From the IMG/VR virus record IMGVR_UViG_3300045988_015275, positions 1 through 5,636 of that record: 5,636 bases of DNA, one strand, 5' to 3'. Below are positions 1 through 5,636 of this stretch, piece after piece; position 1 is the stretch's first letter; each line of letters begins with the position of its first letter. A program made the position numbers and the translations under genes. A model generated the notes under the pieces. The model was not told where the DNA came from. It saw only the letters and a list, made by a program, of their open reading frames with translations, and ran no database searches. Source of the stretch: a virus.

Positions 1-55
1 GCAGCGGGCATCAATCCTATCCTAGCAGCGACCAACGGAGCAACAAGCACACCAT
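1..55. repeat. Terminal direct redundancy, left copy; identical to 5582-5636. This is the signature of a circular genome written out linearly.
   Basis: Base-by-base comparison: gcagcgggcatcaatcctatcctagcagcgaccaacggagcaacaagcacaccat occurs at 1-55 and again at 5582-5636 with no mismatch. The repeat lies inside an open reading frame and keeps it in frame. Confidence 0.9.
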
Positions 56-474
56 CGGGAGCATCTGCAAGCATTGGAAGCCAACATTATAACCAGCAGA
101 GCGCACAAGCTGCAAGTGTAAGCGCTATGTACGAGTACGGCAACAACACGGCAGAACTGGCAGACAAATACTTACAGCTGGCAAAGCAAGCCACCAGCGC
201 AAAACAGTTTAAGAATGCCAAAAGCTGGGAACAGGCAGCAAGCGAGCTGGCAACCTCAAGCGCAAAACAGGCACAACAGTACAGCTATGCAGCAAGCAAA
301 TTAGGTTCAGGCCTTGCAAAAGCGGGAGAAAAAGCCAAAGACGCAGTAAAAAAGGCTGGTGAAGCAGCCAAAGAAGGTGTTGACAAAGTAGCCGAAGATA
401 CTATCAACAAGACAGCAAGAAGACGTAAACTAATAGATGGATTCAAATCTGGAGAAACATACACAGGAGACTAA
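1..474 (+). CDS. VP2: DNA pilot / minor capsid protein VP2, C-terminal 157 aa. It continues the ORF that starts at 5183 across the circular junction; the whole protein is 290 aa.
   Basis: Frame 1 is open from base 1 to the TAA at 472-474, and the frame from ATG 5183 runs into base 5582 (= base 1) as a codon start. The junction encodes ...AERAFQKEMRGTAYQDTVKDMIAAGINPILAATNG..., which I recognise as the conserved core of gokushovirus-type VP2. The Ala/Lys/Glu-rich helical C-terminus suits a phiX174 H-like pilot protein. The track ORF 127-474 is only an internal Met of this gene. Confidence 0.8.
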   Translation, partial: AAGINPILAATNGATSTPSGASASIGSQHYNQQSAQAASVSAMYEYGNNTAELADKYLQLAKQATSAKQFKNAKSWEQAASELATSSAKQAQQYSYAASKLGSGLAKAGEKAKDAVKKAGEAAKEGVDKVAEDTINKTARRRKLIDGFKSGETYTGD

Positions 475-480
475 GAAAGG

Positions 481-511
481 AAAGGGGGGTGGTAAAACAT
501 CTCCCTTTTTT
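481..511 (+). terminator. Rho-independent terminator-like hairpin downstream of VP2
   Basis: The 5' arm 481-491 (aaaggggggtg) pairs with the 3' arm 498-508 (catctcccttt), with loop gtaaaa. That gives 11 pairs, including two G-U wobbles and a G/C-rich core (484-491 with 498-505). A run of six T (506-511) follows. It starts 7 nt after the VP2 stop. Confidence 0.55.
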
Positions 512-548
512 AGTAACAGCAATCAAAAAAAAGAAAGCGAGGTGTCAA

Positions 549-581
549 CCGGCACAAGATAGACAAGGAAGCTTGTGCCGG
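549..581 (+). promoter_or_regulatory. Perfect 10-bp stem-loop immediately upstream of the Rep start, with an SD-like AAGGAAG in the loop
   Basis: ccggcacaag (549-558) is the exact reverse complement of cttgtgccgg (572-581). The 13-nt loop atagacaaggaag contains AAGGAAG (565-571). The stem ends 8 nt before ATG 590 and covers the alternative GTG at 575. Confidence 0.5.
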
Positions 582-589
582 TAACAAAA

Positions 590-1579
590 ATGCCATGTAC
601 AAAACCATTAGTATTTCAGATGGATACAAAAAAACCGCAACTGTGGGGAAGTCTGGAAAACCTATCCAAGCAAGGACTGCAAACGGACATCATGGACGGA
701 GTCAAAAAAGGAAAATTCGCATTGTTACCATGCGGTAAGTGCGAATATTGCCGAAAACAGACGGCTGACCAATGGGCAACAAGAATAGAGCTAGAAGCCA
801 AAGAGTGGGACGATGTGATTTTTCTAACACTGACATATGACGATGAGCATATCCCATACGGCGAAATCATCAAAGGCTACAAAAGCATTCAAAGCCAGAC
901 GGTAAGCAAACGAGACGTACAGCTATTTATAAAGCGACTGAGAAAAGCATACAAAAAACCAATAAAATACTTTCTAGCAGCCGAATATGGCGACAGAACA
1001 AAAAGACCACACTACCATGCGATAGTATTTGGACTAAAACCACCGGATGCACAATGGTATAAGAACCAGAAAGGCAACAGCTACTTTAAAAGCGAGTGGT
1101 TACAAAAAATCTGGGGCAAAGGTATGATTGACTTTTCACCAGCACAGCCGGGAAGTTTTGCATACGTAGCGCAGTACGTCAACAAAAAAGCCATAGGTGC
1201 AGAGCAAGCAGCTAAATACTGGATGGAAGGTCGAGAGCCAGAGTTTAGAATCATGTCAAAAGGTATCGGCGAAAAATATCTAAAAGAACACAAAGATGAA
1301 ATCTTGAAAACAGATAGCATCATATGCGCAGGAGGACGCGAGAAAAGGCCGCCACGCTATTTTGATAAGATACTAGATAAGGATACCAGCCAAGACACAG
1401 AAAGCTATTTTAAGGCACATTCTGACGAGCTGAGAGAGGTTAGAGCCAGACGCAGACGCAGTGCAATACAAAGTTTGGTCAATCTCGAACAGAGCACAAG
1501 CGTGGATTACGAAACCTATCTCAACATTCAGAAAGAAAAAGACAAACTAAAGCAAAAGTGGCGTGAGCCAAAAGCATGA
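590..1579 (+). CDS. VP4: Rolling-circle replication initiator (HUH endonuclease), Microviridae VP4 / phiX174 A-like, 329 aa
   Basis: Motif I FLTLTY is at 821-838. The HUH motif is HYH in RPHYHAIVF (1010-1018). The catalytic tyrosine motif YVAQYVNKK (1163-1189) is nearly identical to phiX174 A YVAKYVNKK. A CGKCEYCR cysteine cluster lies near the N-terminus. ATG 590 gives the family-typical MPCTKPL N-terminus. GTG 575, the track start, is possible (AGGA 566-569, 5-nt spacing) but lies inside the hairpin arm. Confidence 0.9.
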   Translation: MPCTKPLVFQMDTKKPQLWGSLENLSKQGLQTDIMDGVKKGKFALLPCGKCEYCRKQTADQWATRIELEAKEWDDVIFLTLTYDDEHIPYGEIIKGYKSIQSQTVSKRDVQLFIKRLRKAYKKPIKYFLAAEYGDRTKRPHYHAIVFGLKPPDAQWYKNQKGNSYFKSEWLQKIWGKGMIDFSPAQPGSFAYVAQYVNKKAIGAEQAAKYWMEGREPEFRIMSKGIGEKYLKEHKDEILKTDSIICAGGREKRPPRYFDKILDKDTSQDTESYFKAHSDELREVRARRRRSAIQSLVNLEQSTSVDYETYLNIQKEKDKLKQKWREPKA

Positions 1580-1599
1580 CGCAAAGCACACAAGCGCGA

Positions 1600-1614
1600 T
1601 ATAATATTAACTTG
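1600..1614 (+). promoter_or_regulatory. AT-rich palindromic element just after the Rep stop. It could be a -10 box (TATAAT 1600-1605) or a candidate nick/origin core.
   Basis: TATAAT is at 1600-1605, with ATGACG (1576-1581) 18 nt upstream as a weak -35. The 8-bp palindrome TAATATTA is at 1602-1609. ATATTAA (1604-1610) and AACTTG (1609-1614) are both sub-strings of the phiX174 origin core CAACTTGATATTAATAAC, but in a different order. Confidence 0.3.
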
Positions 1615-1644
1615 TTGTAGGAGTAGTAGTAGAGGTGGTGGAAA

Positions 1645-1810
1645 AGTTGAAAAGTACTAAAATTTAACACTAAAGCGTAAATAAAAAGCAAAAAACGCTG
1701 TTGAAAGTTTTGTTGAAAACTTGTTGAATTGTTGAAAGTTCGTCAAAATGACTAAAATCATTGTGCAACATTTTGTGGAAAACCTGTTGAAACTGTTGAA
1801 ACTGTTGAAA
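1645..1810 (+). repeat. Array of nine same-orientation TGTTGAAA octamers (iteron-like)
   Basis: Exact TGTTGAAA occurs at 1699-1706, 1711-1718, 1730-1737, 1785-1792, 1794-1801 and 1803-1810. One-mismatch copies are at 1645-1652 (AGTTGAAA), 1722-1729 (TGTTGAAT) and 1774-1781 (TGTGGAAA). All are in the same orientation in non-coding DNA. I found no other exact copy elsewhere in the window by eye. Confidence 0.85.
1784..1810 (+). repeat. Perfect tandem repeat (CTGTTGAAA)x3
   Basis: The 9-mers at 1784-1792, 1793-1801 and 1802-1810 are identical and head-to-tail. Confidence 0.95.
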
Positions 1811-1884
1811 ACGCGCACAGCGCTAAAAAGGAATGGATTTAGCCGAATTCCGCTGCGCTCCATACGGCAAGGCGCTAAAGCGCC
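1811..1884 (+). other. GC-rich cluster of nested or adjacent hairpins in the non-coding region; candidate ssDNA structural element
   Basis: gcgc-aca-gcgc is at 1813-1823. gctaaa (1822-1827) pairs with tttagc (1838-1843). gcgca (1813-1817) pairs with tgcgc (1854-1858), enclosing the former. ggcgc-taaa-gcgcc is at 1871-1884. GCGCTAAA is a direct repeat at 1820-1827 and 1872-1879. The region contrasts sharply with the A/T-rich repeat array just upstream. Confidence 0.5.
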
Positions 1885-1902
1885 ATTCAAACCAAAAAAC
1901 AA

Positions 1903-1931
1903 TTGACAAGCGACAAAAAAAGTGATATCAT
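1903..1931 (+). promoter_or_regulatory. Near-consensus sigma70-type promoter with extended -10, driving the peptidase-to-VP1 gene block
   Basis: The -35 is TTGACA (1903-1908), followed by an exact 17-nt spacer. TG at 1923-1924 plus TATCAT (1926-1931) gives TGnTATCAT, which is 5/6 to TATAAT. The predicted start near 1938 precedes SD GAGGA (1945-1949) and GTG 1957. Confidence 0.6.
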
Positions 1932-1956
1932 AAAAACAGAAAGTGAGGAAACAGCC

Positions 1957-2349
1957 GTGAGCATTAAAAGCTACATTGTAAACACCGATGGAAACGTAAA
2001 ACTTGCAAGACACTTCAAAGTAAAAGAGTTTGCATGTAAAGACGGTAGTCCGGTAGTATTCATAGACGAACATCTATACACTACTCTGGATATCTTACGA
2101 CATGAGCTGGGAAAACCAGTCATTATCACCAGCGGATACAGAACACCAGAGTGGAACGAAAAAGTCGGTGGAGCAAAATACAGCTATCATATGCGCGGTA
2201 TGGCGGCAGATATCCGGGTCGATGGCGTGAGTCCAAAAGAACTTGCCCAAAAACTTAATAGCATCGTCCCAGATGAATGCGGCATTATCGTATATAACAC
2301 GTGGGTACACATCGACACACGCGCCAGCAAATACAGAAAGGGGGTATAA
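1957..2349 (+). CDS. Zinc metallopeptidase of the peptidase M15 type (D-Ala-D-Ala carboxypeptidase / L-Ala-D-Glu peptidase fold); putative peptidoglycan hydrolase, 130 aa
   Basis: The sequence reads FKVKEFACKDG ... ITSGYRTPEWN ... SYHMRGMAAD (H-x6-D; His 2188-2190, Asp 2209-2211) ... WVHIDTR (His 2308-2310). This is the His/Asp/His zinc-ligand layout of M15 enzymes such as the phage T5 endolysin. There is no in-frame ATG before the domain. GTG 1957 has GAGGA 7 nt upstream and lies downstream of the promoter. The track start TTG 1903 is the promoter -35 itself, so it is unlikely to be coding. Confidence 0.8.
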   Translation: MSIKSYIVNTDGNVKLARHFKVKEFACKDGSPVVFIDEHLYTTLDILRHELGKPVIITSGYRTPEWNEKVGGAKYSYHMRGMAADIRVDGVSPKELAQKLNSIVPDECGIIVYNTWVHIDTRASKYRKGV

Positions 2350-2350
2350 G

Positions 2351-2473
2351 ATGGCGCTGATTTCCATTAAGGACATCAAACAGGCAATCCGCATTATGAT
2401 GCAGATTCTCGAAAAGCTTGACGAAATCTATCACGCATTGCATGATAGCGTCAACGAAAAAGAAAAGGAGTAA
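2351..2473 (+). CDS. Small hypothetical protein, 40 aa, predicted helical (MALISIKDIKQAIRIMMQILEKLDEIYHALHDSVNEKEKE)
   Basis: ATG 2351 lies 1 nt after the peptidase stop, with GGGGG (2340-2344) 6 nt upstream. The track ORF 2243-2473 is this gene plus a spurious N-terminal extension overlapping the peptidase in another frame. I do not recognise the family. Confidence 0.55.
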   Translation: MALISIKDIKQAIRIMMQILEKLDEIYHALHDSVNEKEKE

Positions 2474-2477
2474 AGCC

Positions 2478-2699
2478 ATGACGAACAGATCGTGGAATGT
2501 ACGAGACCAGCCCGAAGAAGCATTGGAAGAACTGCTCACACGAAAATACAAAGAAATTGATGGCAATTACAAAATGCTTAAAAAAGTGTCAAACATCAAA
2601 GACGCACAAATGCTAGTAGATGAAATTTGGCAAATGAAAAGCTTTGTAAACGCCATCGAAATGGAACTGATTAGAAGGGGGTATAAAAATGGCACATAG
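2478..2699 (+). CDS. Small hypothetical protein, 73 aa, acidic/helical
   Basis: ATG 2478 is preceded by AAGGAG (2465-2470) at 7-nt spacing. The track ORF 2418-2699 starts at a TTG inside the previous gene. The protein MTNRSWNVRDQPEEALEELLTRKYKEIDG... has no hydrophobic segment, and I do not recognise the family. Confidence 0.65.
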   Translation: MTNRSWNVRDQPEEALEELLTRKYKEIDGNYKMLKKVSNIKDAQMLVDEIWQMKSFVNAIEMELIRRGYKNGT

Positions 2700-2805
2700 A
2701 AGCGGAGCGGGTAAAGGCGACCGAGAACGCTTTACCCAGACAGCAAAGCGGGTAAAAAACATCAATGTACGACCGAAGGTATCGCGGGGCGGCATCCGCC
2801 TGTAA
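2689..2805 (+). CDS. Very basic 38-aa protein; probable DNA-binding/packaging protein (phiX174 J or gokushovirus VP8/ORF8 analogue)
   Basis: This ORF is absent from the ORF track (too short). I translated it by hand: MAHRSGAGKGDRERFTQTAKRVKNINVRPKVSRGGIRL, ending in TAA at 2803-2805. It has 10 Arg/Lys against 2 acidic residues. GGGGG (2677-2681) lies 7 nt upstream of the ATG. The start overlaps the end of the previous gene by 11 nt, suggesting translational coupling. As I recall, the RGGIRL-type C-terminus recurs in small basic proteins of gut microviruses. Confidence 0.6.
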   Translation: MAHRSGAGKGDRERFTQTAKRVKNINVRPKVSRGGIRL

Positions 2806-2841
2806 ACGATACAAACAAAGACGAAGAGTAAAGGAGAAAAA

Positions 2842-3096
2842 ATGAAACTGAAATTCTATTCATTCCACGATGCACTGACCAACGGCTACTCTCAGCCGTT
2901 TCTTCAGAACAACAGGGCACAGGCGGTCAGAACGGCACGCTGGAAAGCCAACGAAAGCAAACCGAGTGAAATCGAAGATATCAGTCTGGTTGAACTGGGC
3001 GAGTTTGACACCGAAACCGGCTACATGAGCGAGGCAATGCCTGAACACATCGCACGGCTCATCGATCTGAAGGAGACGGCCAATGTTAAATCCTGA
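2842..3096 (+). CDS. Conserved small non-structural microvirus protein, 84 aa (possibly VP5-like)
   Basis: AAAGGAG (2830-2836) lies upstream of ATG 2842. The pattern MKLKFYSFHD...GYSQPFLQNNRAQAVR...ISLVELGEFDTETG resembles a small protein I recall as common in gokushovirus-like genomes (...PF...N...A.R...L..LGEFD..TG). The functional label is uncertain. Confidence 0.6.
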   Translation: MKLKFYSFHDALTNGYSQPFLQNNRAQAVRTARWKANESKPSEIEDISLVELGEFDTETGYMSEAMPEHIARLIDLKETANVKS

Positions 3097-3502
3097 TGCA
3101 CTGGTAAGGTACTACGGACTACCGACCGAGAGAGTGGCAAACAATCCGGGCAGCAAGACCGCGCCAACGTGGAAAGCAGTAAAGCGACCGAACGGCACTA
3201 CCGACTACATCGAGCAGCCGGAAGAAAACACATACGAAAAAATCCAGCGAGCCGGCGAAGGATACGACCTTGCAAGCGCAATCGCACGGCTGGAAGCCGG
3301 AGATACCAGCATCAAGGCAAAGAGCATGGTATACACCGAAGGAACTGAACTTGAAAGTCTGCCGAAGGATATCATGACAATGCACGAAAAAGCCGAGACT
3401 GCAGCCGAAACGCTGGAACAGCTGAAACAGGTGCAGCAGATCGAACAGCCGAAGCCGGAAGAGAAAAAGGAAGAGGTGAAGGAAAACGAACCGAAACAGT
3501 GA
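3083..3502 (+). CDS. Putative internal scaffolding protein (VP3-like), 139 aa, with an acidic/Lys-rich tail
   Basis: AGGAG (3071-3075) lies 7 nt before ATG 3083, and the start overlaps the previous gene by 14 nt. The gene sits directly upstream of the capsid gene. The protein is acidic with a low-complexity tail, PKPEEKKEEVKENEPKQ. Similarity to the VP3 family is weak by eye, so the CDS call is firmer than the function. Confidence 0.6.
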   Translation: MLNPDALVRYYGLPTERVANNPGSKTAPTWKAVKRPNGTTDYIEQPEENTYEKIQRAGEGYDLASAIARLEAGDTSIKAKSMVYTEGTELESLPKDIMTMHEKAETAAETLEQLKQVQQIEQPKPEEKKEEVKENEPKQ

Positions 3503-3527
3503 AAACCATTTCGCGCAAGTGCCACGA

Positions 3528-5144
3528 ATGGAACGACCGCGAAGCAAATTTGACCGAAGTCACCAGCTGCTGACGACCATCAACGAAGGCGAACTGGTGC
3601 CGATCTACTGCGATGAAGTGTTACCGGGTGATACCGCAAAAGTGCACCTGAACGGCCTTATCCGTATGAGCACGCCCATCTATCCGATAATGGATAACGC
3701 CTATATGGACACCTATTTTTTCTTTGTTCCATGCCGTCTACTGTGGGAACACTGGGAAAATATGTTCGGCGAAAACGACACCAACTATTGGGCAGAAAAG
3801 ACCGAATACAGCACGCCGACTTGCACAATCGGCGGCACGAGCGGCCTGAACAATGGCAGCATTGGAGACTACTTTGGACTGCCGACTGGAGTCAAAAACA
3901 AAATCAAAGTCAACGCACTACCGGCGCGCGCATACGCAATGATATATAACGAGTGGTTTCGAGATGAAAACTTGGAAGCACCGTTAATGCTAGGGTACAA
4001 AAAAACTGACGATGCGGGAGACGCCCCTGACGCGGGAAATACAACCACATACATCAACGAACCAAGCCGAACGACAGACACCAACGAGGGAAACATGTAC
4101 TCGAGAAAACCCGCAAAGGCGGGCAAGTTCCACGACTACTTCACGAGCTGTCTACCTTCGCCGTTAAAATCGGACACTGTGGAAATCAACCTGACGGGCA
4201 ATGCACCAATCAAAGGATATAAAGACTTTAATTATTCAGAACTACAGCTTCAGCAAGTAAGTCCAATCATGAGCGCAACAATCAGACCTGGAGCAGAAGT
4301 AACGGTAAGACCCAGCTACGCAGTAATTAAAGAGGGCGGAAACACCGCATACTTAGGTGCAGACCTCAGCAACGTAAGCGGCATCAGTATTGCAGACTTG
4401 CGCATGAGCATCGCACTGCAGCACATCTTCGAGGCAGATGCACGCAACGGCACGCGCTATCGCGAGTTCCTTTCCGGCACATGGGGCGTGACAAGTCCGG
4501 ACAGCCGTCTACAGATTCCTGAATACATCGGCGGACAGCGCATCGCAATCAATGTAAACCAAGTCGTACAGACGAGCCAGACGGACACGACAACCGGGCA
4601 AGCACTGGGCAATACAGCAGCATACAGTCTGACCACATGCAGCAAGGACATGGTGGACTATGCAGCGACCGAATACGGCTATATCATCGGTCTGGCAGTG
4701 ATACGAGTGGAACACAGCTACCAGCAAGGACTTGCGACCAAGTGGACACGTGGCGGGAGATTCACCTACTACGACCCGCGTCTAGCAGCACTGGGCGAAC
4801 AGCCAGTGTATAACCGCGAGATATACGCACAGGGCACGGCCGAAGATAACGAGATCTTCGGATATCAAGAAGCATGGGCGGACTACCGCTACAAGCCTTC
4901 TTACGTAACCGGAGAAATGCGGTCTAACTACAAGACGAGTTTGGATGCATGGCACTATGCAGACGATTATGACGCGCTCCCGCGTCTCTCGGCGGAGTGG
5001 ATTCAGGAAGGAACACAGAACATTGACCGAACGATTGCAGTAACAAGCGCAAAAAGCCACCAATTCTTGTGTGACATCTACTTCACAGAAGATTGGTACC
5101 GCGAGATGCCTATCTACAGCATCCCGGGCATCGAAAGAATTTAA
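3528..5144 (+). CDS. VP1: Major capsid protein VP1 (Microviridae F-like jelly-roll capsid protein), 538 aa
   Basis: The N-terminus RSKFDRSHQLLTTINEGELVPIYCDEVLPGDT, then FHDYFTSCLPSP, ARNGTRYREFLSGTWGV and YQEAWADYRY are hallmark microvirus capsid motifs. ATG 3528 is preferred over the track GTG 3519. Neither has a clear SD, so the start is uncertain by 9 nt. Confidence 0.92.
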   Translation: MERPRSKFDRSHQLLTTINEGELVPIYCDEVLPGDTAKVHLNGLIRMSTPIYPIMDNAYMDTYFFFVPCRLLWEHWENMFGENDTNYWAEKTEYSTPTCTIGGTSGLNNGSIGDYFGLPTGVKNKIKVNALPARAYAMIYNEWFRDENLEAPLMLGYKKTDDAGDAPDAGNTTTYINEPSRTTDTNEGNMYSRKPAKAGKFHDYFTSCLPSPLKSDTVEINLTGNAPIKGYKDFNYSELQLQQVSPIMSATIRPGAEVTVRPSYAVIKEGGNTAYLGADLSNVSGISIADLRMSIALQHIFEADARNGTRYREFLSGTWGVTSPDSRLQIPEYIGGQRIAINVNQVVQTSQTDTTTGQALGNTAAYSLTTCSKDMVDYAATEYGYIIGLAVIRVEHSYQQGLATKWTRGGRFTYYDPRLAALGEQPVYNREIYAQGTAEDNEIFGYQEAWADYRYKPSYVTGEMRSNYKTSLDAWHYADDYDALPRLSAEWIQEGTQNIDRTIAVTSAKSHQFLCDIYFTEDWYREMPIYSIPGIERI

Positions 5145-5154
5145 GGAAGGAGGA

Positions 5155-5180
5155 AGCCCCGCAAAAGCGGGGCTATTTTT
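5155..5180 (+). terminator. Rho-independent terminator-like hairpin between VP1 and VP2
   Basis: agccccgc (5155-5162) is the exact complement of gcggggct (5167-5174), with loop aaaa, followed by ATTTTT (5175-5180). It begins 11 nt after the VP1 stop (5142-5144). Confidence 0.65.
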
Positions 5181-5182
5181 GA

Positions 5183-5636
5183 ATGGAGACCTTATTAAGC
5201 TTTATGCCGTACCTCATGCAAGGGCTGAGCATGTTAACGGGCATCATAACAAGCAGCAACCAGAGCAGCGCCAAAAACAGCCAAGGATCAGGCAACGAAA
5301 GCACAACCGGCAGCGAGACCACAACGGGCAGCGTAACAGCGCCGCAGCAAATCGGTGCAACACAAATCGGCACGCCAACGGGTATTACCACATTTGGCAA
5401 CCAGAGCAGCGTAAACACCGCAAACGCACTGCAAATGATGAGCGGACTGCTGAGCAACCTCGCAAACGCCGGAAGCCAAGCAAGCGCCAAGAAGTACAAC
5501 AGCGCAGAAGCAGCAGCAGAACGAGCATTTCAAAAGGAAATGCGCGGGACAGCCTATCAGGATACCGTGAAAGACATGATAGCAGCGGGCATCAATCCTA
5601 TCCTAGCAGCGACCAACGGAGCAACAAGCACACCAT
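5183..5636 (+). CDS. VP2: DNA pilot / minor capsid protein VP2, N-terminal part; it runs off the window end and continues at base 56 of the circle
   Basis: ATG 5183 is preceded in frame by TGA (5180-5182), so it is the first possible start. The frame has no stop through 5636. It encodes METLLSFMPYLMQGLSMLTGIITSS (hydrophobic), then a Ser/Thr/Gly/Gln/Asn-rich segment, then the conserved AYQDTVKDMIAAGINPILA core. A strong SD, GGAAGGAGGAA (5145-5155), lies upstream of the intervening hairpin. The ORF track misses this ORF because it has no stop inside the window. Confidence 0.8.
   Translation, partial: METLLSFMPYLMQGLSMLTGIITSSNQSSAKNSQGSGNESTTGSETTTGSVTAPQQIGATQIGTPTGITTFGNQSSVNTANALQMMSGLLSNLANAGSQASAKKYNSAEAAAERAFQKEMRGTAYQDTVKDMIAAGINPILAATNGATSTP
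5582..5636. repeat. Terminal direct redundancy, right copy; identical to 1-55
   Basis: See the left copy: 55/55 identity. Confidence 0.9.

Follow-up and report, generated by a model that had tools for sequence, protein, structure and literature searches.

The DNA analysed here (the window) is a 5,636-nucleotide (nt) viral stretch, positions 1 to 5,636 of the IMG/VR record IMGVR_UViG_3300045988_015275, and holds the genome of a gokushovirus. Between the gene for VP4, the replication protein (Rep), and the gene for an M15 peptidase it carries an array of co-oriented octamer repeats. The array makes up the distal end of a discrete cassette of 232 nt (1580-1811), which shares its architecture with the dnaA-dnaN spacers of Oscillospiraceae and Ruminococcus. 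Judged from its sequence, the cassette is probably a mimic of the host origin oriC: host DnaA would open the double-stranded replicative form, the host replisome would replicate it, and VP4 would make the strands that are packaged.

Architecture of the cassette

The boundaries of the cassette, obtained by comparison with the close relative L001 (KX513876), are uncertain by about 3 nt (CGC microhomology). Its parts are as follows.

1580-1811, + strand: whole oriC-like cassette (232 nt), from comparison with L001
1599-1610, + strand: AT-rich stretch ATATAATATTAA (12/12 A/T), the presumed unwinding element
1609-1617, + strand: conserved, phage-specific 9-mer AACTTGTTG between the AT-rich stretch and the trios
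1618-1632, + strand: five DnaA-trios, TAG GAG TAG TAG TAG, four of which are GAT
1633-1636, + strand: G-rich gap AGGT (4 nt) from the trios to the proximal box
1637-1645 and 1645-1653, + strand: proximal tandem box pair GGTGGAAAA and AGTTGAAAA, from alignment with relatives and hosts
1699-1738, + strand: box cluster 1, from motif search, with TGTTGAAAG at 1699, TGTTGAAAA at 1711, TGTTGAATT at 1722 and TGTTGAAAG at 1730
1741-1753, + strand: small inverted repeat CGTCAAAATGACT between the clusters, read as CGTCAAAATGACG in relatives
1774-1811, + strand: box cluster 2, from motif search, with TGTGGAAAA at 1774, TGTTGAAAC at 1785, TGTTGAAAC at 1794 and TGTTGAAAA at 1803

A preceding sequence-only reading of the window had described nine co-oriented octamers, six exact and three with one mismatch, at 1645-1810, and all of them were found again. 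Exact copies of TGTTGAAA start at 1699, 1711, 1730, 1785, 1794 and 1803 on the + strand and one-mismatch copies at 1645 (AGTTGAAA), 1722 (TGTTGAAT) and 1774 (TGTGGAAA), so that the reported start-to-start spacings of 54, 12, 11, 8, 44, 11, 9 and 9 nt were reproduced by the motif search. No exact TGTTGAAA exists elsewhere in the window, as had also been said, and the perfect triple repeat was recovered by Tandem Repeats Finder as (CTGTTGAAA)x3 at 1784-1810 with 100% matches. The placement of the array between Rep and the main promoter holds too, the VP4/Rep stop being at 1579 and the promoter at 1903-1931. Allowing up to one mismatch, the genome contains 16 matches to TGTTGAAA where 5.5 +/- 2.3 are expected from 200 dinucleotide-preserving shuffles, none of which reached 16. 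What had been missed were a tenth box-like site, GGTGGAAAA (1637-1645), the run TAG GAG TAG TAG TAG (1618-1632) and the AT-rich stretch (1599-1610), as well as the fact that boxes, TAG run and AT-rich stretch make up one cassette.

A pattern scan of IMG/VR for the array returned 120 loci (L004-L123), 86 of which are gokushovirus genomes; with the window these form an array-selected set of 87. The order of the cassette is AT-rich stretch, [A/T]ACTTGTTG, trios, gap, box pair, about 45 nt, a four-box cluster, the inverted-repeat spacer and a second four-box cluster. The 24 nt at the AT-rich position have a mean AT content of 0.74 over 83 cassettes, and in the window 16 of the 19 positions from 1599 to 1617 are A/T. 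The 9-mer AACTTGTTG is identical in 67 of 83 cassettes and takes the form [AT]ACTTGTTG in 76 of 83. Read outward from the boxes, the trios of the window are 3'-GAT GAT GAT GAG GAT-5'; the pattern TAG-NNG-(TAG)n is present in 83 of the 87 cassettes, the remaining four being variants or truncated contigs, and neither the trio run nor the full arrangement was produced by any of 2,000 genome shuffles. The gap between trios and box is 4 nt in 62 of 83 cassettes.

The boxes themselves are kept in a similar manner. The first proximal box in relatives is mainly TGTGGAAAA (26), AGTGGAAAA (11) or TGTTGAAAx, and the spacer from the proximal pair to the first four-box cluster is about 45 nt when cassettes are oriented by their boxes. 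Cluster 1 retains its box number and spacing across relatives, and in cluster 2 the 8-nt cores are fixed while the bases between them vary (C or G). A logo of 808 boxes reads T-G-T-(T 0.91 / G 0.09)-G-A-A-(A 0.90)-(A 0.50), and within a cassette all boxes point the same way. Inside related cassettes the canonical DnaA box TGTGGATAA occurs 15 times and TGTGGAAAA 71 times, all oriented as TGTTGAAAA, and TTATCCACA has 0 occurrences on the box strand.

Identity with host chromosome origins

Scanning bacterial genomes for three closely spaced copies of TGTTGAAA yielded 120 loci. About 37 of them belong to Oscillospiraceae, Ruminococcaceae or Ruminococcus (counted from record titles), and in 9 of those a dense array lies beside a gene with DnaA motifs. 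Both dnaA (Bac_DnaA and Bac_DnaA_C) and dnaN were confirmed by Pfam in L145, L211, L183 and L130, whose dnaA-dnaN spacers contain exact TGTTGAAA 12-22 times and lack exact TGTGGATAA altogether. Starting from dnaN, the spacers read AT-rich, TAGTAGTAGTAGTAG, GGGG, TGTTGAAAC TGTTGAAAAC, about 45 nt and then more clusters. At the trio position stands TAGTAGTAGTAGTAG, the gap is GGGG or GGGC, the proximal boxes are TGTTGAAAC TGTTGAAAAC or TGTGGAAAAG, and the AT-rich run lies beyond the trios in the same place as in the phage. The order, orientation and spacing of the parts are identical in the cassette and in the host spacers.

The sequence-only reading had taken the array for binding sites of a replication initiator or a host factor, a proposal to which the host-origin match lends support, and had named DnaA as one candidate. 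It appears to have picked the right protein by weak reasoning, namely that the relaxed E. coli DnaA box is matched in part. We consider DnaA the right candidate because the TGTTGAAA type of box fills the dnaA-dnaN spacers of Oscillospiraceae and Ruminococcus, because the array is joined to DnaA-trios and an AT-rich stretch in host-origin geometry, and because the canonical TGTGGATAA boxes of related cassettes are co-oriented with the other boxes.

The recognition helix of DnaA domain IV reads GGRDHSTIVY(A/S) in all six host loci compared (L130, L135, L145, L172, L183 and L211), and the helix of E. coli and B. subtilis DnaA is GGRDHTTV(L/I)H. The variant helix goes with the altered box, TGTTGAAA rather than TGTGGATAA, and this may represent a switch in specificity. 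The origin match suggests a gut Gram-positive member of the Oscillospiraceae or Ruminococcus as the likely host. The M15 peptidase, a peptidoglycan hydrolase, is consistent with a Gram-positive host.

Dense TGTTGAAA arrays, in both orientations, were also seen in metagenome-assembled genomes of Thermotogota (L155, L189, L196 and L231; Mesoaciditoga/Athalassotoga), where L155 reads TAGTAGTAGTAG-gtac-TGTTGAAAG TGTTGAAAAC. No dnaA motif was found within these 8-kb Thermotogota loci. Since the phages come from the gut, we favour Oscillospiraceae over Thermotogota as the host.

Comparison with the basal unwinding system

The basal unwinding system (BUS) of bacterial origins consists of a DnaA box, a spacer and repeating DnaA-trios (PMC8287927). 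In the published search rule, the box has at most two mismatches from the species motif, and three or more NAN trios, most often 3'-GAT-5', lie within 0-16 bp of it; the GC-rich gap is about 4 bp, and the commonest overall spacer is 13 bp (PMC8287927). From the four Pfam-verified Oscillospiraceae/Ruminococcus dnaA-dnaN spacers we derived the motif TGTTGAAAA, from which AGTTGAAAA deviates by one mismatch and GGTGGAAAA by two. In sequence the window conforms to this rule, with five trios, 4 nt from the proximal box and 12 nt from the better one. In every cassette examined, the proximal boxes are oriented to the trios as in the host spacers. An AT-rich element is present as well, although its run is short compared with those of host origins.

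Parts, order and orientation are those of the B. subtilis incC BUS, with its boxes 6 and 7, GC-rich gap, trios and AT-rich element. In that origin, reversal of the proximal boxes 6 and 7 inactivates incC, and a distal box functions at many distances and in either orientation (PMC6669920). By analogy, the fixed proximal pair and the looser distal clusters of the cassette match this orientation and distance behaviour. Unlike a chromosomal BUS, the cassette does not lie beside dnaA. It sits between VP4 and the M15 peptidase gene of a 5.58-kb circular gokushovirus, a 5.6-kb single-stranded DNA (ssDNA) phage, and therefore we call it an oriC-type module and not an oriC. The cassette further differs in being portable (232 nt, two positions, both orientations), in its extra conserved AACTTGTTG and in its shorter AT-rich run, and its activity is predicted.

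Conservation and exchange of the cassette

The VP4-to-M15 spacer matches 43 GenBank phage records, many of which are otherwise very divergent. It is 90.6% identical to that of KX513868, whose VP4 is 38% identical in amino acids (aa), and the annotation of the region in the matching records goes nowhere past 'hypothetical protein'. Within the array-selected set, the array follows VP4 in sense orientation in 63 of 87 genomes, lies between VP2 and VP4 in antisense in about 21, and follows VP4 in antisense in 2; the antisense cassette totals 24 of 87. In both main configurations the AT-rich end of the cassette adjoins VP4, at its 3' or 5' end, and in two genomes the box end is next to VP4 instead.

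As L004-L123 were fetched by the array pattern, the statement that every genome has a cassette would be circular for that set, and to remove that bias we used a second sample, chosen by capsid protein. Similarity of VP1 gave 79 loci, of which 73 are close relatives, 6 of these being partial contigs without the relevant spacer. Exactly one cassette was found in 67 of 67 full-length close relatives (65 by automated scan, 2 by inspection), and in all 67 it is antisense and between VP2 and VP4. The sequence-only reading had proposed a comparison with relatives. The motif and, in cluster 1, the box number and spacing are indeed conserved, whereas the intergenic position and the orientation vary.

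The window departs from the rest of its clade, with a sense cassette right after the VP4 stop. In its closest relative L001, whose VP4 is 98% aa identical, the VP4 stop TGA directly abuts CGCGCACAGCGC, where the window has 232 extra bases (1580-1811), and the antisense cassette of L001 (about 225 nt, in the VP2-VP4 spacer) is precisely missing from the window. The flanks are 92% (VP4) and 95% (1811-1896) identical between the two. The cassette of the window is 92.5% identical to that of L055 and 90.6% to that of L002, which both belong to distant lineages, whereas its identity to the cassette of L001 is only 75.8%. The window has lost the ancestral copy and gained a foreign one at another site and in the opposite orientation. 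No other observation speaks as strongly as this swap for a self-contained, cis-acting cassette that is under selection and acts on duplex DNA. Its freedom in position and orientation speaks against a signal read in ssDNA or RNA, a Rep iteron, a promoter stack or a coding region.

The stretch 1584-2695 is a mosaic, in which the cassette, the M15 peptidase gene and the small open reading frames (ORFs) are 80-92% identical to L055, L002 and KT264791, genomes whose VP4 and VP1 are only about 38-46% aa identical to those of the window. Outside this stretch the genome is 85-95% identical to KX513876. The insertion of the cassette is itself base-exact. Directly 3' of the cassette lies a GC-rich structured block (1812-1896) with the hairpin GGCGCTAAAGCGCC at 1871-1884 and a central palindrome that varies among relatives, GAATTC or GAGCTC. 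The block is conserved independently of the cassette, because it is 95% identical to the KX513876 sequence abutting the VP4 stop.

Arrays of TGTTGAAA were also seen in larger viral contigs, mostly from one gut metagenome (L073, L062, L076, L112, L117, L086, L021, L036, L082 and L088). L073 (39 kb) has a full module at 1790-1980, with an AT-rich stretch, TAGTAGTAG, GGGC and a box pair, and tail-like genes nearby; the adjoining 916-aa ORF resembles a tape-measure gene by size and position only, no family-library search having been made. The 9-mer AACTTGTTG was found neither in the host origins nor in this tailed-phage module when the spacers were compared. Mimicry of host origins may be common to unrelated phages of these hosts. 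A narrow scan for the module with canonical boxes (TAGTAGTAG-N(2-8)-TGTGGATAA) returned clear modules in large viral contigs only, and its sole microvirus match (L278) was a lone box with none of the other module parts. The large contigs L245/L256/L274, L255, L264, L269-L271, L280 and L281 carry an AT-rich stretch, (TAG)n, GGGG and TGTGGATAA arrays. These canonical modules could be origins of phages or phage-plasmids, or chromosomal origin fragments mis-called viral.

Proposed role and alternative explanations

The textbook model of Microviridae replication is that of phiX174, with a Rep nick site in gene A and host priming on ssDNA. In the scheme that we propose, the incoming single strand would be converted to the double-stranded replicative form, and host DnaA-ATP would fill the boxes of the cassette. 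From the proximal pair DnaA would extend onto the trio strand and melt the AT-rich stretch, which would then let the host helicase be loaded and the host replisome copy the replicative form. This step might serve amplification or plasmid-like maintenance, and rolling-circle synthesis by VP4 would provide the single strands for packaging.

Several points weigh against this proposal. DnaA binding and unwinding are predictions from sequence. The pure A/T run of the window, only 12 nt, is short for an unwinding element, and the phage-specific AACTTGTTG beside the trios is not accounted for by the host model. SpV4, phiMH2K, Chp2 and five more distant gut gokushoviruses, the five picked independently of the array, showed no box cluster, trio run or clustered 7-mer repeat; the module is therefore no general requirement of the subfamily. 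None of the 120 bacterial loci encodes microvirus proteins, which were sought as a prophage or binning link, and hence the host assignment derives from the origin match only. In addition, replication initiation and other uses of a DnaA-driven opening would look the same in these data, which do not separate them.

We considered whether DnaA assists Rep, such that the melted cassette lets the HUH endonuclease VP4 nick, or a helicase load for rolling-circle replication, with AACTTGTTG as the VP4 recognition or nick site. The near invariance of AACTTGTTG in phage cassettes and its restriction to them relative to the host origins and the tailed-phage module speak for this explanation, as does the VP4 gene next to the AT-rich end in both main configurations. 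The gpA protein of phiX174 needs a partly melted origin, and CTTG is common to the phiX174 nick site CAACTTG^A and the pC194 site CTTG^ATA. Yet most members of the window's clade have the cassette pointing against the genes, so the nicked and packaged strand would switch, while the A over T skew of the coding strand is unchanged between the two orientations (+0.33 and +0.36). The coding strand is strongly A-rich and T-poor in the window and 86 relatives (A 0.36, T 0.17-0.18); as a test of the packaged strand, this equal skew is weak evidence. Moreover, the two genomes with the box end beside VP4 do not fit, and no phiX-type origin turns up in the window at up to three mismatches. A k-mer survey for a second conserved cis element of fixed orientation, a candidate Rep nick site, gave only strings like ribosome-binding sites and the hairpin after VP1. 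On balance, we regard DnaA-assisted nicking by VP4 as unlikely.

We find it quite improbable that the array is a DnaA sink or regulator, with replicative forms titrating DnaA as datA or the B. subtilis inc clusters do, or with array-bound DnaA controlling phage promoters. Ten co-oriented boxes per genome copy would make a large titration capacity, box clusters on plasmids inhibit chromosome initiation in B. subtilis, and the array of the window ends 92 nt 5' of its strongest promoter (1903-1931). Neither titration nor transcriptional control needs trios, a fixed 4-nt gap or an AT-rich flank, the very parts in which conservation of the cassette is highest, and the placement relative to promoters (after VP4, or antisense before it) is not conserved.

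Two further explanations from the sequence-only reading have very little probability in our view. Direct repeats adjoining a rep gene recall the iterons of plasmids or the direct repeats of pMV158 RepB, and could have been bound by the phage's own VP4. The same 8-mer arrays, however, occur in host dnaA-dnaN spacers and in tailed-phage contigs without VP4, and cassette similarity is uncoupled from VP4 similarity: 90%-identical cassettes are found in phages with 38%-identical VP4, and the relative with 98%-identical VP4 has a cassette only 76% identical. VP4 has the HUH Rep domain only, and no iteron-binding initiator was recognized. A DnaA-dependent complementary-strand origin on the viral ssDNA, of the R6K A-site/ABC-primosome type, fares no better. 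The array boxes do read as DnaA boxes, and a hairpin with a DnaA box can prime complementary-strand synthesis. Co-oriented boxes, though, cannot pair into a duplex box, the viral strand from 1590 to 1815 folds no better than shuffles (z = -0.19), and where the cassette is antisense, as in the 67 close relatives and in 24 of the 87 array-selected genomes, the viral strand contains its complement instead.

Explanations of the array as a by-product are hardly credible. A 52-aa ORF (MTKIIVQHFVENLLKLLKLLK...) at 1748-1906, which the sequence-only reading had flagged, is open in the window and 24 relatives. Of the 87 cassettes, 62 lack its start codon (a homologous ATG is present in 25), its length ranges from 30 to more than 61 aa, and the variability at codon positions does not resemble that of a coding region (0.12, 0.07 and 0.02 upstream of the array, position 2 highest after it). 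TTGAAA resembles a -35 hexamer, but the suggested stack of such hexamers amounts to one weak promoter-like match (9/12) in the array. Nor does a packaging signal find support, for inversion turns any sequence read in ssDNA into its complement. That the cassette moves between sites would suit a selfish miniature mobile element; such an element would neither stay single-copy across all 67 genomes nor reproduce the functional components of a host origin.

Some other candidate sites were dropped. The conserved 30-nt origin of phiX174 (CAACTTGATATTAATAAC...) has no match within 3 mismatches on either strand. The 0A box of Spo0A has the consensus TGNCGAA, with C at position 4 and G at position 5, whereas at position 4 the 808 boxes have T (0.91) or G (0.09) and never C (0.00). 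Sites of OmpR/WalR/PhoP-type and LytTR-type response regulators and of IHF, judged by their consensuses, were set aside once the host-origin match appeared.

Relation to other replicons

The origins of pSC101, P1 oriR, F, RK2 and R6K resemble the cassette in that a mobile replicon recruits host DnaA through boxes. In those origins DnaA assists a replicon-encoded, iteron-binding initiator that opens the DNA, whereas DnaA alone is predicted to open the window DNA, because the phage has no gene for an initiator of the iteron type and has its own trios. Minichromosomes and plasmids based on oriC are likewise small circles driven by a host origin module and DnaA, but they are laboratory constructs or cloned origins, whereas the window is a natural virus with a compact mimic beside a rolling-circle Rep. 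The (+) origin of phiX174 (30 nt, in gene A) and its PriA primosome site belong to the same virus family and are also cis signals in or near the rep gene. They depend on the strand, as a Rep nick site or ssDNA hairpins, while the cassette is strand-independent, which matches a duplex DnaA origin. The R6K A-site, with its ABC primosome, is a case of DnaA use by a single-stranded replicon, but it needs a hairpin that makes the box duplex; none is predicted in the cassette (z = -0.19), whose orientation is not conserved.

Significance of the module

If the proposal is true, the DnaA unwinding module adds a second step, dependent on the host initiator, to Microviridae replication. In the library searched, no paper was found joining 'DnaA box' with Microviridae or Ruminococcus, and nothing relevant for oriC, DnaA or DnaA-trio with Microviridae, Gokushovirinae or bacteriophage. 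The type of module is known; an exchangeable cassette of this kind in a rolling-circle ssDNA phage is one for which we found no prior report. The module is present in one copy per full-length genome of an abundant gut clade and is exchanged as a unit between lineages. For gut gokushoviruses, none of which has a cultured host, it also offers a concrete host prediction that can be put to the test, and the matching of cassettes to host origins is a possible general route to phage host assignment. On the bacterial side, the comparison exposes a non-canonical DnaA box, TGTTGAAA(A), in Oscillospiraceae and Ruminococcus together with a variant recognition helix (RDHSTIVY).

More tentatively, it is possible that a large clade of gokushoviruses from human and animal guts uses DnaA-driven minichromosomes to replicate or persist in cells of Oscillospiraceae/Ruminococcus, with the cassette setting the host range and allowing a plasmid-like carrier state. 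Rolling-circle synthesis by Rep would then be needed solely for the progeny single strands, and a carrier state, if true, would be a lifestyle not described for Microviridae.

Genome context and other elements

The ends of the window are identical (1-56 and 5581-5636, a 56-nt assembly overlap), and the genome is therefore circular with about 5580 nt. The nearest GenBank records are the human-gut gokushoviruses MT121961 and KX513876, with 87% identity across 86-87% of the genome. All genes of the window lie on the + strand, and Pfam finds in VP4 only the HUH Rep domain PF23343. Searches with Rfam (E <= 1) and ARAGORN detected no RNA genes in the window. The neighbouring features are the following.

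5183 to 474, spanning the junction, + strand: VP2, from the ORF list and comparison with relatives
590-1579, + strand: VP4/Rep, PF23343 (HUH Rep domain)
1903-1931, + strand: best promoter-like site, TTGACA-17-TGaTATCAT, from a promoter scan, just 5' of the M15 peptidase gene
1957-2349, + strand: M15_3 peptidase with GTG start, Peptidase_M15_3 (Pfam)
2351-2805, + strand: small ORFs, from the ORF list
2842-3096, + strand: VP5 (Pfam)
3083-3502, + strand: VP3 (Pfam)
3519-5144, + strand: VP1, PF02305

A terminator-like hairpin, AGCCCCGCAAAAGCGGGGCT followed by a T-run, lies 3' of VP1 at 5147-5180. Its k-mers GGCTATTTT and AAGGAGGAAGCC are found on the coding strand in 53-67 of the 87 genomes and almost never on the opposite strand, and it is the sole deeply conserved non-coding element besides the cassette. 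This hairpin may act as a terminator or as an origin for the complementary strand. Positions 549-581 hold a perfect 10-bp stem, CCGGCACAAG...CTTGTGCCGG, 9 nt 5' of the start codon of VP4, with TTGACA on the opposite strand ahead of it; in relatives with the antisense cassette, the AT-rich end of the cassette lies a few bases beyond this hairpin region.

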